From NCBI GenBank assembly GCA_964607485.1, contig CAZSKP010000001.1:1-64000 (forward strand): a stretch of DNA of 64,000 nt. Reading direction: 5' to 3'. Below, in pieces: positions 25,562-40,922 of this stretch. The notes below the pieces were generated by a model. The model had not been told where the DNA came from. It saw only the letters and a list, made by a program, of their open reading frames with translations, and did no database searches. Each line of letters opens with the position of its first letter. Position 1 is the stretch's first letter. The position numbers were made by a program, and so were the translations under genes. The stretch comes from an uncultured bacterium (GTDB lineage: Bacteria > Abyssobacteria > SURF-5).

Positions 25562-25634
25562 GGGGATGTAGCTCAGTTGGGAGAGCGTTTGACTGGCAGT
25601 CAAAAGGTCGTGGGTTCGATTCCCATCATCTCCA
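25562..25634 (+). tRNA. tRNA-Ala(GGC); CCA not encoded
   Basis: Acceptor GGGGATG/CATCTCC with G3:U70; anticodon arm TTTGA-CTGGCAG-TCAAA; T-loop GTTCGATTC; followed by CTA. Confidence 0.96.
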
Positions 25635-29299: not shown

Positions 29300-29411
29300 T
29301 TCTTACCTCTTCGATTCAGTGCTGCGATGTTACCCCCTTCTCATCTTGAAGGCGACACAGAAAGCGCCTGCCTTAGAATACGGGAAGGCCCAGGACCGCG
29401 ATTTCCGCCCG

Positions 29412-30110
29412 TCACGGCACCCAGAAGGGACCGCTTTTCCCGATTCCCTTAAGAGTGGCAAAGAACTCTCCCATATACTCCGGTATTCGGGAAACGTAGT
29501 CGGCGTCCAGACGCCTGCGGAAAAATTCGATGGAGAACAGTTTCACAAGGTCGGGCAGCGGCACTATCCCATCCTTCTTCTCTTCGGTATAATCGGCCCA
29601 GTTCTTCAGGTGTTCTTCCGACCGGAAGAAAACCATCGTGCTTCAGGCAAAGCCCGGGTCTTGCATCCACTGCAAGAACGGAACCGACACATGCCCGATT
29701 ATCCCGTCCGGGCTCGTGTTAAGGATTTCGCCGTCCTTGATCTCGACCCGTATGGGCTCACCGCAGTCCAGACACGGGGAATCGATTCGAACAGTTTTTC
29801 CAGGAAAGAGCCAGCAGACCGCCAGCGATTCGAATGCTCACTGGCCGAACCATTTCTGCTGACCGTCAATCGTGATGCGGAACTGATTCATGAGGCTGTT
29901 GAACGGCGCCATCGACACGATGATATCCGTCTTCGGATACAGCCATCCGGGCACTCCGGCATTGACCAAGTCGTGGAGCGCCTTCCTGCCTTCCTCCACG
30001 GAAACACCCAATTTCTTGGCTATCTCCGTGTAGTGAGGCGCCTGCCCTGTTTCCACGAAGCGCTTCAGGATTACGTTGTGGGTCCTGTCCAGCAGGCTCG
30101 GCTCACTCAT
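29412..30110 (-). CDS. MerB-like (organomercurial lyase fold) protein with two predicted selenocysteines (U91, U156), 232 aa
   Basis: One frame with TGA at 29840-29838 and 29645-29643: ...WFGQ-U-AFE...SPCLDCGEPIRV...GFA-U-STMVFFRSEEH; matches MerB C96-A-L-D99 and C159..FF.S; SECIS-like hairpins follow both. Confidence 0.88.
29613..29630 (-). promoter_or_regulatory. SECIS-like hairpin after the second UGA
   Basis: UUCUUCC-GGUC-GGAAGAA, perfect 7-bp stem, 12-nt spacer after the UGA. Confidence 0.75.
29810..29826 (-). promoter_or_regulatory. SECIS-like hairpin after the first UGA
   Basis: GCUGGC-GGUCU-GCUGGC (6 bp, two G:U), 11-nt spacer after the UGA, resembling the fdhF-type SECIS. Confidence 0.7.
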
Positions 30111-30207
30111 GAATTCTCACCTCCTCGTGTTTGTTGAAATTGGTCTTAAAGACCTCAGTTGCCATGATGCGCATTCCACTTGGGTCACTCCAGTTCTCCG
30201 TCCTATA

Positions 30208-33575: not shown

Positions 33576-36260
33576 TTAGAACGTATCATTCTGCTCTACC
33601 ATGGTAATGATGTTTTGCGCGTAGGCAATGAGCATCGCCGCAACTTCCGAGGAGATCTTGTTCCCCGTTTGGGCGTTGACCTCGTTGATGAACGCGTTCA
33701 ACTGGCCTATCGCGGCATTATCCTTGTCCTTGTCAATCGACGTCTGCGCCGCCTGCACTTTTGAGTAGAGACTGGTCTTCGTTTCATCTGACAGGACATC
33801 ATCGGGGAGCGTACTGATGATGTCTGTCAACCCATCGATGCTATCGATGCAGCCGTTCGCGTCAGCGTCAAAGCCGGTTGCGTCTACGTCGGGACAGGTG
33901 TCAACGTTGCCGCAGACACCGTCGTGGTCGGCGTCATTGTAGGGGTCGAGCGGACAACTGTCGCACACATCGCCCAGTCCGTCGGTGTCGGAATCCGTTT
34001 GGTCGGCGTTCGACACTTCGACGCAGTTATCGCAGGCATCTCCGACGTTGTCGCCGTCGGCGTCCGCCTGGTCGGTGTTCGCGTTGACCGGGCAGTTGTC
34101 GGCGTTGCCGCAGATCGTGTCGCCATCGGCGTCGTTGTCTGCATCGAGCGGGCACGCATCGCATGCGTCGCCGATTGCGTCTCCATCGGCGTCGGCCTGG
34201 TCGGCGTTCGGTGTGACAGGGCAATTATCCACGTCGCCGCAGACGGCATCTGTATCTGCATCGTTGTCGGCGTCATTCGGACAACTGTCGCACACATCGC
34301 CCAGTCCGTCGGTGTCGGCGTCACTCTGGTCCGCATTGGAAACGGTCGGACAATTGTCCACGTCGCCGCAGACGGTGTCGGCGTCGATGTCGTTGTCTGC
34401 ATCGAGCGGGCACGCGTCATCGGCGTCGCATATCTCGTCGCCGTCGGAGTCTTGCACGCAGCCCTCGCAGACGTCGCCGACGCCATTGGCGTTTTCATCG
34501 AGCTGGTCGGGATTGTTCACATCGGGACAGTTGTCACATACGTCTCCAACGCCGTCACCGAGGGCGAACTTCTGGATGCGGCAATTGTTGACTTCGGTGA
34601 CGTAGACCAAGCCGGAACGGATCGCGATTCCGTAGGGGTTGAAGAACTGCCCTGCGCCTGTGCCGTAGCTTCCCCACTTGCCCAGGAAGTTTCCATCGGA
34701 GTCAAACATCTCAACGCGGTGATTCTGATAGTCGGTAACATACAGGTGGCCCATGGGATCGAAGGCGATGCCGGACGGGCCGTTGAACTGCCCGTCACCG
34801 GTGCCGAAACTTCCCCACTTGCCCAGGAAGTTTCCGTTCGTATCGAACTCCTGGACGCGGTGGATGTACGTGCCAGACCAATTGCCGCTGTCGCAGACAT
34901 ACACGACATCGGACGAATCGATGGCGATTCCCCTTGGCGAGCCGAATTCGCCGTCACCGGAGCCGTAGGTTCCCCACGAAATTCCCGCGAAGTTGCCGTT
35001 GGCGTCGAACTTCAGAACCCGCCGATTGCCTGCCTCCAGAACGTACCCATTGCCGGAGGAGTCGAAAGCGATTCCCACGGCGCTCCAGATTCCGGCGACG
35101 CCGTACGACGGCGGGGGAGGAAGCGGAGGGGAGGTGGCGGCGGGCCACTTCGTGACGAAACCGCCGTTGCTGTTGAATACCTTGATTTGATTGGAGTCGG
35201 TCACATATATGTTGCCGTCGGGACCGATCGCGATACCCTTCGGATCGCGGAACTGATCATTGGCGGTGCCGTAGCTTCCCCACTGCGTCAGGAGATTCCC
35301 GTTGGCGTCGAACTTCTGGACCCGATAATTCTGCCAATCGGTCGCGTACACGGAGCCGGACTCATCGACTGCGACGCCGTGAGGGAACATGAATTGGCCG
35401 GGGTTGGTTCCCCTGCTCCCCCAGTACAGCTTAGGCGCGAGACCCGGATCCGATTCAGTCTGATCCGGATTCGAGATACCTGGACAATTGTCGCAGACGT
35501 CGCCCAGCCCATCGGCGTCGGCGTCGGCCTGCGACGCATTGGGTGTGGTCGGGCAATTATCCGCCGCGTCGGGGACGCCGTCGCCGTCGGCGTCTGGTTC
35601 CACATAGTCATATGTCAATATCGTGTCGTCGACCAGATGCCACTGTCCGGCGCCCGATTCCACCTGGATGGGCTGAACGGAGAAGGCCGAAGTTCCCGCA
35701 TAAACGGTGTCGATATAGAAGTCGATCCCGGTTGGCGTCTGTTTTATTTCAAAGAGATGCCAGCCGAGCGACCTGGCAATGGTTGTTACAAAATGCGTCC
35801 AGGAGCCCGTGTTGTTGTTTCGGCCGAAGACCGTATAGAAATCCTCGCTCAGGGCTGATTTGCCGATGCCGACGTAATGGTTGGAAGTCTCCTCGACGTT
35901 CATTGAAAACCATCCGCCGACGGTCATATTGTCGTACATCCACGTGCTGAGGACATAATTCTGCCCATCCCAATCGGCGATGCCGGTGGTGTACGTCATA
36001 TAGGTTGCCGACATCGAGCCGCCGTCGTGATAGTACCAATCTCTCCACATGGAGTATGAACCGCTCACCTTATCGTCCGCGTATTGCCCATACGCGGTGT
36101 AATAGGAAAACGCCCAGTTGCTCCAGTCATTATCCTCGTAATCATCGATGATAATTGTTTTTGATGCCGCAAAGGCGGCCGGCGTCCCCCACTGGAATAC
36201 AAAAAACAGAGACAAGACAAAGATGATGATCTTACTGCACGTTGCTACTTGCTTCTTCAT
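33576..36260 (-). CDS. Secreted protein with NHL beta-propeller, thrombospondin type-3 Ca-binding repeats and C-terminal FIMAH-like domain
   Basis: Signal peptide; F..P.GIA.D..G..YV.D..N.RV..F repeats; many DNCP...N.DQ.D.D.DG.GD.CD repeats; L.AFINEV.AQ.G.KI. Confidence 0.88.
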   Translation of the reverse strand: MKKQVATCSKIIIFVLSLFFVFQWGTPAAFAASKTIIIDDYEDNDWSNWAFSYYTAYGQYADDKVSGSYSMWRDWYYHDGGSMSATYMTYTTGIADWDGQNYVLSTWMYDNMTVGGWFSMNVEETSNHYVGIGKSALSEDFYTVFGRNNNTGSWTHFVTTIARSLGWHLFEIKQTPTGIDFYIDTVYAGTSAFSVQPIQVESGAGQWHLVDDTILTYDYVEPDADGDGVPDAADNCPTTPNASQADADADGLGDVCDNCPGISNPDQTESDPGLAPKLYWGSRGTNPGQFMFPHGVAVDESGSVYATDWQNYRVQKFDANGNLLTQWGSYGTANDQFRDPKGIAIGPDGNIYVTDSNQIKVFNSNGGFVTKWPAATSPPLPPPPSYGVAGIWSAVGIAFDSSGNGYVLEAGNRRVLKFDANGNFAGISWGTYGSGDGEFGSPRGIAIDSSDVVYVCDSGNWSGTYIHRVQEFDTNGNFLGKWGSFGTGDGQFNGPSGIAFDPMGHLYVTDYQNHRVEMFDSDGNFLGKWGSYGTGAGQFFNPYGIAIRSGLVYVTEVNNCRIQKFALGDGVGDVCDNCPDVNNPDQLDENANGVGDVCEGCVQDSDGDEICDADDACPLDADNDIDADTVCGDVDNCPTVSNADQSDADTDGLGDVCDSCPNDADNDADTDAVCGDVDNCPVTPNADQADADGDAIGDACDACPLDADNDADGDTICGNADNCPVNANTDQADADGDNVGDACDNCVEVSNADQTDSDTDGLGDVCDSCPLDPYNDADHDGVCGNVDTCPDVDATGFDADANGCIDSIDGLTDIISTLPDDVLSDETKTSLYSKVQAAQTSIDKDKDNAAIGQLNAFINEVNAQTGNKISSEVAAMLIAYAQNIITMVEQNDTF

Positions 36261-38616: not shown

Positions 38617-39684
38617 TCACAAACCGCGCGAGGAACTTGTGACCGGGCACATCGAGGCGCGGCCGCCGGGACCGCGGCCGGGCCGTCGGCCGATGGATTG
38701 AATCCGTTGGCGCAAGCCTGAGTGGGATTCGGATCCCGTCTCCCTGATGCACACCTTGCCCGGATAGACCTCATACTTCGCGCGATAGCTGAGCGGCGTC
38801 ATGTTTGGCATGATGACGTTGGCTCCCCGCCCGAGGCCGAGCTCGCGTCCGACGGCGGAGTTGACCGTCGCCAACGCCGTCGTGGCGGGGATGTTGGCTT
38901 CGGGACAGACGATGCGCGTGAGCGCGATCACCTTGTACGTCATCTCTTCCGTGTTGGGCGCCTGTTCGTTCTCAGGGATGGGCCGTCGCCATTCACCCGA
39001 GCCGACGGGCGTATCCGGGTGGGGAATGTAGGGGCCCACTCCGACCATGTCGAGGTCGAGCTTCCGGAAGAGGTCGATGTCGTCGGCGAGGCCGGCAAAC
39101 GTCTGTCCGGGGATGCCGATCATGACACCGCCTCCGATTTCGTAGCCCATCTCCCTTAGTCTTAGCAACGCAGCCAGGCGGTCCGACACCCTTCCCGGAA
39201 GCGACGGATGGATTAACCGATAGAGGTCGGGGTCGGAGGTCTCAAACCGGAGAAGGTACCTGTCGGCCCCGGCCCGCCGCCAGGCCTGCAGGTCTTTGTC
39301 GGGACGCTCTCCCATGCTCAGCGTGACGGCCAGCCGGGTCTCGGCCTTTATGCGGCGAATGACGGCGGCAAGCCAACCGGTTCCGATACCGTAGTCTTCG
39401 CCCGACTGGAGGACGACCGTGCCGTAGCCGTATCCCACGGCTGCACGGACGCACGTCATGATCTCGCCCTCTGTCATTCGGTAGCGTTCGACCTTCTTGT
39501 TGTCACGCCGCAGGCCGCAATAGCCGCACTGCCGCACACAGTGGTTGGAGATCTCAATCAGGCCGCGCAGGTGCACCTCGTCGCCGACGGTTTCGCGCCT
39601 CACCCCGTCGGCCCAGCGCCAGAGCTGCGCAAGGCGTTCTTCGTCCTCTTCCCGCAGCCATGCGAGTATTTCGCTCCGGTTCAT
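38617..39684 (-). CDS. hydE: [FeFe]-hydrogenase H-cluster radical SAM maturase HydE
   Basis: RGLIEISNHCVRQCGYC, VLQSGED, YLLRFET, GANVIMPN, YPGK; start ATG 39684 overlaps the hydF stop. Confidence 0.95.
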   Translation of the reverse strand: MNRSEILAWLREEDEERLAQLWRWADGVRRETVGDEVHLRGLIEISNHCVRQCGYCGLRRDNKKVERYRMTEGEIMTCVRAAVGYGYGTVVLQSGEDYGIGTGWLAAVIRRIKAETRLAVTLSMGERPDKDLQAWRRAGADRYLLRFETSDPDLYRLIHPSLPGRVSDRLAALLRLREMGYEIGGGVMIGIPGQTFAGLADDIDLFRKLDLDMVGVGPYIPHPDTPVGSGEWRRPIPENEQAPNTEEMTYKVIALTRIVCPEANIPATTALATVNSAVGRELGLGRGANVIMPNMTPLSYRAKYEVYPGKVCIRETGSESHSGLRQRIQSIGRRPGRGPGGRASMCPVTSSSRGL

Positions 39685-40922
39685 TGTTGCTGCCTTTTCA
39701 CTTCCCGATACACTTCCAGCGCGGCCGGGAACGGATCGAGCGCGCGCTCGAGGATGCCGAGTGAGTAGGCTATCGCCAGTCCATAATTGGTTATCGGCGC
39801 CTTCGCCTGGCGGCATCGCAGCAGCCGCGTCAGCATCTCGCGCCGGTTCAGCATGCAGGCGCCGCAGTGGACGATGAGATTGTAGCGCGAGATGTCGTCG
39901 GGGAAGTCGTGTCCCTGAATGGTGTCGAACTCCAGTTTTCCGCCCACGTATTGAGTCAGCCAGCGGGGAATTTTCACGCGGCCGATGTCCTCGGCTATCG
40001 GATGATGCGAGCATGCCTCGCAAATCAATATGCGGTCTCCCGGCTTCAGTCGTTCGACGGCCAATGTCCCCATAACCTGTTGTACAAGGTCGCCCTTGAA
40101 ACGTGCGTAGAGAATCGAGAACGAAGTCAACTTGATTTCGCGCGGGGTGTCGGCGGCCACTTTCAGAAACACCTGTGAATCGGTCACCACGAGTTTTGGG
40201 GGACGCTTCTGTCGTTCCAGCGCGTCGCGCAGCTCGCGCTCCTTGACAACCATGCAATAGGCGTCGCTATCCAGCAGGTCGCGGATTGCCTGAACCTGAG
40301 GCAGAATCAGCCGTCCTTTTGGCGCCTCCTTGTCAATGGGAACCACAAGCACCGCCATCTCTCCCGCGCCAACCAGGTCACCGAGGATTATCGGGTTGTT
40401 GATAAATTCCGCAGGAGCCGTATCGAGCAACGCCCGACGAAAATCCAGTATTCCCATGTTCAGAGTGGCAGCGGTTCTTACGACGGGGATTTTCCGCGAT
40501 TGCAGCCGTTCAACGACTCCGCCGTTCGGCTGAGCGAGGTCAATCTTGTTAAGGACCACTATGCTCGGGATTTTCTGGTTGGCGAGCTCATCCAGCAGTC
40601 GTTCCTCGAAGGTTCCCCATTTGCGGGCCTCGCACACGACGACGCCGAGGTCTGTACGGTCAAACACCTGGCGCGTTCTCTTGACACGAAGCTCGCCGAG
40701 TGCGCCTTCGTCGTCTATTCCCGCGGTGTCGATGAACAGCACAGGCCCCAGCGGCAGAAGCTCCATAGGTTTCTCGACCGGGTCGGTCGTGGTGCCCGCC
40801 TGCTCGGACACAATGGAGACCTGCTGTCGCGTTATCGCGTTGAGCAGGCTCGACTTTCCGACGTTGCGGCGGCCAAACAGCCCGATGTGGAGTCGGAGTC
40901 CTTTTGGAGCGCGTTCACCCAT
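39681..40922 (-). CDS. hydF: [FeFe]-hydrogenase maturation GTPase HydF
   Basis: GRRNVGKSS, DTAG, NKID, APKGRLILPQ, CSHH and HCGAC motifs. Confidence 0.96.
   Translation of the reverse strand: MGERAPKGLRLHIGLFGRRNVGKSSLLNAITRQQVSIVSEQAGTTTDPVEKPMELLPLGPVLFIDTAGIDDEGALGELRVKRTRQVFDRTDLGVVVCEARKWGTFEERLLDELANQKIPSIVVLNKIDLAQPNGGVVERLQSRKIPVVRTAATLNMGILDFRRALLDTAPAEFINNPIILGDLVGAGEMAVLVVPIDKEAPKGRLILPQVQAIRDLLDSDAYCMVVKERELRDALERQKRPPKLVVTDSQVFLKVAADTPREIKLTSFSILYARFKGDLVQQVMGTLAVERLKPGDRILICEACSHHPIAEDIGRVKIPRWLTQYVGGKLEFDTIQGHDFPDDISRYNLIVHCGACMLNRREMLTRLLRCRQAKAPITNYGLAIAYSLGILERALDPFPAALEVYREVKRQQQ

Follow-up and report, generated by a model that had tools for sequence, protein, structure and literature searches.

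The 64,000-nucleotide stretch analyzed here (the window; positions 1 to 64,000 of contig CAZSKP010000001.1, assembly GCA_964607485.1, from an uncultured bacterium of the lineage Abyssobacteria) contains two short open reading frames (ORFs) on its reverse strand, at 29838..30110 and 29412..29636, that lie in a single frame. This raises the question of whether the two are the remains of a broken gene or pieces of an intact one, and, if the latter, what its product might do. We find that the locus is one intact gene in whose mRNA two UGA codons, each with its own downstream hairpin, are decoded as selenocysteine (Sec), and that the encoded protein is very probably a genuine double-Sec member of the MerB superfamily.

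A Single Gene Interrupted by Two In-Frame UGA Codons

An earlier note on this DNA had proposed that one frame of 232 amino acids is hidden behind the two ORF fragments, with TGA codons 65 codons apart, and all of its coordinates and motifs were reproduced here. Translation of positions 29412..30110 (-) yields a single frame of 232 codons that is interrupted solely by TGA at codons 91 (29838..29840, -) and 156 (29643..29645, -). It is the table-11 ORF list that splits this gene into the two fragments given above; more generally, gene callers split genes of this type into two or three fragments or read TGA as tryptophan. The coding sequence is complete, running from an ATG at 30110 through 232 residues to a TGA stop at 29412-29414, as judged from the frame, the match to PF03243, the AlphaFold2 (AF2) model, Foldseek, and ratios of non-synonymous to synonymous substitution (dN/dS). 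A ribosome-binding site, GAGGAGG (30120..30126, -), can be read off the sequence 9 nt 5' of the ATG, and since an in-frame TGA occurs three codons 5' of the ATG, the start can be no further upstream. At the other end, the position of the stop is occupied by TAA or TAG in four of six full-length orthologues from the same family, with the other two extending by one residue, and the terminal TGA is therefore a true stop. The frame contains the protein motifs WFGQ-U-AFE, SPCLDCGEP, and GFA-U-STMVFFRSEEH, where U denotes Sec.

Conservation of the UGA Codons and Machinery for Their Recoding

The genome from which the window derives (97.5% complete) encodes the machinery for Sec insertion. Homologs of selA and selB are adjacent on contig 71, with scores of 479.9 bits for SelA and 386.2 bits for SelB (cut-off 242.25); SelD scores 391.6 bits (cut-off 125) and a tRNA-Sec gene with anticodon TCA scores 67.1 bits. 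An absence of such machinery, which the earlier note had named as grounds for abandoning the selenoprotein hypothesis, was thus not encountered. The selD gene of the same genome (G000:C18:62527-63453, locus L015) itself has one in-frame TGA, in the context G-G-U-A-C-K, and encodes a Sec-containing selenophosphate synthetase.

Full-length orthologues with both TGA codons (72-81% identity) were identified in six of nine other genomes of the same family, and pieces of the gene cut by contig ends were identified in two more. One genome from another phylum encodes both a 60% orthologue and a 33% paralogue, with two TGA codons in each. Because the collection comprised only 11 genomes from the phylum of the window and two from the phylum of G016, breadth was drawn from a further phylum, which is rich in sulfate reducers and holds a metagenome-assembled genome labeled Desulfobacteraceae. 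Among 401 genomes sampled from this phylum, 50 had a match at E <= 1e-8 and 38 had hits with at least two in-frame TGA codons. A search of the genome contigs for related loci returned only four. In the codon alignment, TGA is invariant at both columns in all 37 copies, a set that excludes the copy from G290 (L060).

Several copies have a damaged appearance: L060 has an internal deletion of ~16 codons immediately after the second TGA, the copy in G369 (L068; same 401-genome sample) has one TGA and one TAA, and G359:C7:9708-10406 has an extra TAG. These may represent decaying genes or assembly errors. L060 was left out of alignment A2 as well as the codon alignment, L068 lacked a motif match and is in no alignment, and the near-duplicates L049, L052, L054, L059, L063, and L064 were omitted from alignment A3 only.

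Pairwise comparison of seven copies from the same family yielded dN/dS values of 0.08 upstream of the first TGA, 0.12 for the middle segment, and 0.14 downstream of the second TGA, and all three parts of the gene are therefore under protein-level selection. The middle segment, in which pseudogene-like decay had been anticipated as a possible sign against the gene, is instead subject to purifying selection.

Two database searches recovered 268 relatives that we classified by the residue at the first (codon 91) and second (codon 156) sites. Full-length homologs comprised 20 with Cys at both sites, 47 with Trp at both sites, and two with Gly at site 1. A further 54 stop precisely at site 1, 55 with Cys at site 1 terminate at site 2, and three others that terminate at site 2 have Ser, Asp, or a gap at the first site. 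The remainder were restricted to the C-terminal part (10) or the middle part (3) or were other fragments (74). None of the 268 carries a Sec annotation. Homologs with Cys or TGA at both sites, the lack of which had been put forward as an argument against the gene, therefore exist. Collectively, the sequence features by which bacterial selenoproteins are recognized were observed: UGA retained in orthologues, homologs with Cys, downstream hairpins, and Sec machinery.

Hairpins Downstream of Each UGA

Each TGA had been reported to be followed after 11-12 nt by a hairpin with a GGUC(U) loop, and this was borne out, with both hairpins kept across relatives. The first candidate hairpin resembling a selenocysteine insertion sequence (SECIS) element (29810..29826, -) begins 11 nt after UGA-91 and comprises a 6-bp stem (GCUGGC/GCUGGC) with the loop GGUCU. 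The second (29609..29634, -) begins 12 nt after UGA-156 and comprises a core 7-bp stem (29613-29630) with the loop GGUC; in the window copy, this core stem is lengthened by a U bulge and three lower pairs. Two SECIS elements are thus needed within a gene of 700 bases.

The folding energies of the 61-nt stretches at the first and second TGA are no better than those of shuffled sequences (z of -0.07 and -0.37, respectively). The hairpins are therefore unconvincing on one sequence alone and their support is comparative. At site 1, 99.1% of 228 cells are paired among 38 sequences and the helix is nearly invariant, with only one pair changed on both sides. At site 2, 99.2% of 245 cells are paired (37 sequences) and two-sided changes are observed in four of seven pairs (17 cells), a value that none of 500 shuffles reached; slid controls were 45-65% paired. 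Compensatory changes at site 2 sometimes come at the cost of amino-acid changes, as when FFRSEEH is changed to CFRSEAH in L045 and L052. Synonymous-codon entropy is 0-0.8 bits over S-L-A-V-C at site 1 (0-0.76 at this site) and S-T-M-x-F-F-R-S-E at site 2, as compared to ~1.5-2.3 bits elsewhere at comparable four- to six-fold degenerate residues. In these alignments, the predicted hairpin at site 2 is backed by covariation and that at site 1 mainly by invariant synonymous positions.

Sediment-metagenome contigs from other organisms match the window at >=90% only in two islands, at 29794-29886 and 29608-29645. These islands correspond to the two UGA codons and their hairpins, which shows strong conservation of the RNA elements at the nucleotide level. 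A search of the whole window against Rfam at gathering scores returned only a tRNA, and a search of the region 29350-30200 at E <= 10 returned five chance-level matches and no SECIS family. The SECIS of selD in the same genome was considered as a control for the GGUC loop and was dropped, as its fold was not clearly comparable.

Two explanations for the TGA codons that do not involve Sec can be weighed against these data. Were the codons genuine stops, the gene would have decayed into a MerB-like pseudogene or its product would be limited to a 90-residue fragment, in keeping with the fragments that a table-11 reading yields, the shuffle-like folding energies of the single sequence, and the damaged-looking relatives in G290, G369, and G359. 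We regard this as highly improbable given that all 37 aligned relatives, from at least three phylum-level groups, have both TGA codons in the same columns, that dN/dS remains at 0.12 after the first TGA and 0.14 after the second, that the hairpins covary, that homologs have Cys at these sites, and that the genome encodes the full Sec machinery. Alternatively, a variant code or suppression might cause TGA to be read as tryptophan or some other standard residue, as the 47 full-length relatives with Trp at both sites would seem to indicate. However, these entries sit on contigs of ~1-2 kb, on which gene callers switch code, and are therefore TGA-as-Trp gene calls. Moreover, table 11 leaves the neighboring genes open, the window gene itself terminates with TGA at a position that is TAA or TAG in orthologues, and the residue found in nature in place of Sec at the two sites is Cys (once Ser) and not Trp, such that we consider the chance of a standard residue at these positions to be negligible.

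A MerB Fold With Selenocysteine at Both Metal-Ligand Positions

With Cys in place of Sec, residues 75-191 of the protein match PF03243 (MerB) at 79 bits, well above the cut-off of 27, and the same family is matched directly on the DNA at 62.5 bits with both TGA codons inside the match. The AF2 model, built on 38 aligned relatives, has a predicted local distance difference test (pLDDT) score of 93.7 and a predicted template modeling (pTM) score of 0.89. In the PDB, each of the top 11 Foldseek matches to this model is a MerB or MerB2 structure (E 2.6e-10 to 4e-7; TM 0.58-0.68), the best being MerB 3f0o_B (E 2.6e-10). Membership in the MerB superfamily, as the earlier note had suggested, is thus confirmed by both the family model and the fold. 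The product is a 232-residue cytoplasmic protein with a MerB fold that comprises a winged-helix-like N-terminal part and a MerB catalytic domain.

Alignment to PDB sequences with phmmer places U91 at the position of MerB C96, E94 at that of D99, U156 at that of C159, and C113 at that of the buried Cys117. This supports the proposal that both thiol positions are occupied by Sec and that the D99 position is Glu. The equivalence of UGA-91 with Cys96 also follows from alignment to MerB2, with Cys observed at this position in 55 database homologs. The codon for Glu94, the counterpart of the proton donor Asp99, lies at 29829..29831 (-); Glu is found here in 37 of 37 relatives, and Glu or Asp in 18 of the 20 homologs with Cys at both sites. 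A motif not found in MerB, C113-L-D-C116 (29763..29774, -), pairs the Cys117 equivalent with a second Cys that has no MerB counterpart. In alignment A3, C113 is invariant and C116 nearly so, and the CxxC is also present in a distant paralogue encoded in the same genome. The canonical Cys96/Asp99/Cys159 triad is therefore not matched as such; Sec91/Glu94/Sec156 is chemically analogous, not identical, to it.

Relationship to MerB and SaoL

In comparison to MerB (EC 4.99.1.2; PDB 3F0O/3F0P and 1S6L; MerB2 5C17), the protein shares the fold, PF03243, and the three active-site positions. It differs in having Sec/Glu/Sec instead of Cys/Asp/Cys, in a further Cys that follows the Cys117 equivalent by three residues, in an identity of only 19-23%, and in the lack of a merA/T/P/R context among the ORFs tested.

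A closer precedent is SaoL, a MerB-like 'selenocysteine-assisted organometallic lyase' (NF040728) that, according to the preprint describing it, has one Sec in a C-U dipeptide, retains Cys99 and Asp102, and marks a nine-gene SAO locus (Haft and Gwadz, bioRxiv 10.1101/2022.07.06.499078). SaoL resembles the window protein in being a MerB-superfamily selenoprotein of anaerobes with Sec at the Cys159 position, in being truncated at the UGA in databases, and in being encoded outside of mer operons with a substrate that is not established. In contrast, the window protein has Sec at both ligand positions, Ala before U156 (F-A-U), and Glu as the acid, and its gene has no conserved neighbors and no Sao family among the neighbors that were scanned. 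SaoL, with its one Sec, is the sole MerB-like entry in the available selenoprotein tables of PMC9312934 and PMC13188914. MerB is not listed in the main text of the GOS selenoproteome paper, nor is it mentioned in that on BSepDB. The single-Sec SaoL is accordingly the only MerB-like selenoprotein that we found in the literature, the supplementary lists of which may name the present family. The window protein is neither SaoL, the model of which (NF040728) it matches at 41.7 bits against a cut-off of 140, nor a canonical MerB.

Exchange of Selenocysteine and Cysteine Within the Family

Phylogenetic reconstruction was conducted with FastTree on residues 5-154 with the column for site 1 masked, and the tree was rooted at its midpoint. 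With this root, forms with Cys at both sites (C/C) are basal, and forms with Sec at both sites (U/U) or with Cys followed by Sec (C/U) are intermingled. Sister pairs with differing states at site 1 had support values of 0.95-0.98, which indicates repeated exchange of Sec and Cys at this site. The nearest neighbor of the window protein in the tree is a C/C protein, P0010. This protein and the subfamily C/U members P0051 and P0076, both truncated in the database, are 49-65% identical to the window protein and share its motifs and hairpin-coding FFRSEEH stretch; they differ from it only in the state of the two sites. Such repeated switching at site 1 among close relatives constitutes a natural experiment on the benefit of Sec at a metal-binding site.

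The same genome encodes a second double-TGA gene of the MerB family (G000:C4:150930-151700, -; locus L090:1429-2199; 256 residues) that was missed by a protein search of the genome and found with the Pfam hidden Markov model (HMM). Like the window gene, it has TGA codons at the same two positions, a CxxC, and a GGUC-loop hairpin (12 bp) after the second TGA. Its motifs are Y-A-A-U-A-A-D, E-C-A-H-C, and H-A-F-U-K-E-S-V-F-F-W-S-E-E-H. This distant paralogue differs from the window gene in encoding Asp at the proton-donor position (U-A-A-D) and in a spacing of 75 residues between the two Sec.

Terminal extensions were noted in some relatives. In a subset of the double-Sec relatives, the N-terminus is extended by a conserved segment of 40-58 residues in which a twin-arginine motif (for example, T-R-R-K-F-L-K or D-R-R-T-F-M-K) precedes a hydrophobic stretch; this leader is present in 14 of 24 N-extended fragments (P0103, P0105, P0107, P0109-P0111, P0113-P0117, and P0119-P0121) as well as in locus L055. 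This leader suggests that some members of the family could be exported via the twin-arginine translocation (Tat) pathway; the window copy does not have it. In one clade of relatives (loci L053, L056, and L062-L065), a C-terminal extension of ~20 residues ends in a hydrophobic or amphipathic segment (...F-S-L-A-M-K-L-G-L-M) that may serve as a membrane anchor.

Proposed Function and a Possible Link to Mercury

The MerB fold, the three catalytic positions, and the retained acid make MerB-type protonolysis the most economical reading of these data. We therefore propose that the double-Sec protein is an organometal(loid) lyase that cleaves a carbon-metal(loid) bond in the manner of MerB, and we place the probability of this statement as a whole, double Sec included, at roughly 0.55. 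In such an enzyme, Sec91 and Sec156 would be the two ligands that clamp the soft metal or metalloid atom of the substrate and Glu94 would protonate the leaving carbon, in roles equivalent to those of MerB Cys96, Cys159, and Asp99. The hydrocarbon would be released and the metal left between two selenolates, from which C113-x-x-C116 may take it over, or the CxxC may re-reduce the active site. The leading substrate candidate would be methylmercury, with methylated arsenic or another soft organometal also possible.

A hint in this direction comes from co-occurrence with the mercury-methylation gene hgcA. Of the 401 sampled genomes, 39 carry the gene, and 21 of these have an HgcA match (NF040863, E <= 1e-60), as compared with 101 of the other 362 (odds ratio 3.0; Fisher p 0.0015, uncorrected for kinship or genome size, with gene-carrying genomes being large). 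We consider this to be a weak hint. The genome of the window encodes an HgcA-like protein (G000:C9, L097:796-2385, +) with a score of 229 bits against NF040863 (cut-off 275) that is fused to an N-terminal methyltransferase-like part and has the cap-helix stretch NVWCSAGK. It is followed by a two-cluster ferredoxin with a Cys-Cys tail like that of HgcB (ORF ending at L097:2648, +), and the two may form a variant mercury-methylation pair. A back-translated HgcA cap-helix motif had detected none in the genome of the window and 109 among the 401 genomes of the other phylum; it missed the variant and was replaced by the NF040863 HMM.

Several observations weigh against a MerB-like lyase or its link to mercury. 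The protein scores far below the cut-offs of the curated models of canonical MerB (NF033555/NF009710, with scores of 36.3 against 200 and 40 against 193). No mer family was detected among the ORFs tested on both sides of the gene, to which the search for merT, merP, and merR was confined, and the highest-scoring MerA match in the genome falls short of the cut-off (411.9 against 454.45), consistent with the earlier observation that no merA, merR, or merT lies nearby. All-against-all BLAST of 23 loci with ~7 kb on each side revealed no neighbor common to more than three loci, and thus none that could name the substrate. No RNA run contains the stretch; the runs that match are sediment-metagenome DNA contigs, with the stretch present in full in X1, from which it may derive. 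With respect to mercury, 18 of the 39 gene-carrying genomes have no HgcA match, and the co-occurrence statistic ignores kinship and genome size when the carriers are large. Two selenolates are also expected, on chemical grounds, to bind Hg(II) very tightly, such that release of the product would need a partner, and none was found.

Two functions other than lysis can also be considered. A double-Sec protein that does not cleave its ligand could be a binder, chaperone, or sensor of a soft metal (Hg, Cu(I), Cd, or As(III)) with a four-ligand site of two selenolates and the CxxC, and its winged-helix-like N-terminus would perhaps contact DNA or a partner. The four soft ligands (U91, U156, C113, and C116) are indeed conserved, no partner gene that would take the released metal was found, and a Tat-like leader, as often occurs in exported proteins that hold cofactors, is present in a subset of relatives. 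The N-terminal 70 residues also resemble winged-helix domains (Foldseek matches to LexA, PefI, MarR, and Z-alpha; TMt 0.5-0.75, E 0.3-1) and have marginal helix-turn-helix (HTH) matches in Pfam (E 0.07-0.26). However, all of the HTH matches are under the cut-off and the winged-helix-like N-terminus belongs to the MerB fold, with Foldseek alignments to MerB spanning ~200 columns, and the acid at the proton-donor position is unneeded in a pure binder, yet it is kept (Glu in 37 of 37; Glu or Asp in 18 of 20 C/C homologs). We consider a pure binder to be unlikely on this basis. The same degree of doubt applies to a redox enzyme that would form a selenenylsulfide or diselenide among U91, U156, and the CxxC and, through its cycling, would for example reduce or isomerize a sulfur, selenium, or metalloid compound. 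According to the reviews PMC9312934 and PMC13188914, the majority of selenoproteins in bacteria have redox roles and carry Sec beside Cys, the conserved CxxC is one that MerB lacks, and redoxin genes flank the gene in two of 23 loci. Conversely, the fold and three catalytic positions are those of MerB, no thioredoxin-like fold was found, nor a conserved reductase partner among the 23 loci, and the Sec residues are 65 residues apart and do not form a UxxC-type motif. Thus, an organometal(loid) lyase remains our preferred reading.

The occurrence of Sec at both metal-ligand positions of a known active site is unusual for bacteria, and the double-Sec MerB-like family is widespread in sediment anaerobes. 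We know of no enzyme identified for the loss of methylmercury in anoxic, mer-free settings. The gene is carried by about one in ten of the sampled genomes of the sulfate-reducer-rich phylum, more often by those with hgcA. Speculatively, the family might be the missing mer-independent demethylase of methylmercury or methylated arsenic in anoxic sediments, in which two selenolates would allow the lyase to bind and split organometal(loid)s present in trace amounts; we hold this idea only tentatively and think it doubtful. A common selenoenzyme of sediment anaerobes with a MerB fold nonetheless offers a concrete candidate amenable to cloning and assay. What has been gained here is the covariation of the hairpins, the evidence from synonymous sites, the switching between Sec and Cys, the conserved CxxC, the unconserved gene context, the paralogue, and the figures on hgcA.

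Gene Neighborhood and Other Features of the Window

The neighbors of the gene on the same strand encode a radical-SAM protein, HisF, and an Amidohydro_3 protein. The earlier note had placed the novelty of the locus in its double Sec together with this hisF/amidohydrolase context. The former stands, since SaoL has one Sec, and the latter does not. The hisF gene is ordinary (TIGR00735, 322 bits against 294.55), it and the radical-SAM gene recur as neighbors in none of the other loci, the Amidohydro_3 neighbor recurs in only one, and no neighbor is conserved across the 23 loci. In 10 neighboring ORFs, to which the search for Sao genes was confined, no Sao family was detected with NCBIfam, and the neighbors are unrelated by Pfam.

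Among 88 flanking ORFs examined with Pfam, hydrolases of three unrelated families occur within two ORFs of the gene in eight of 23 loci: Amidohydro_3 in the window and L072, Amidohydro_2 in L079, L082, and L088, and Amidase in L077, L078, and L081. These recurrent hydrolases amount to about four independent events and are a weak lead and not evidence. The remaining flanking ORFs are varied metabolic genes.

Elsewhere in the window, positions 33576..36260 (-) encode an 894-residue protein with NHL and thrombospondin type-3 repeats and a FIMAH domain, and this protein has a sub-threshold match to the NCBIfam 'Omp28-related selenoprotein' (111 bits against 200). A tRNA gene is located at 25562..25634 (+). 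Finally, positions 38617..40257 (-) encode the [FeFe]-hydrogenase maturase HydE (TIGR03956, 306 bits against 254.6), the presence of which points to an anaerobe.

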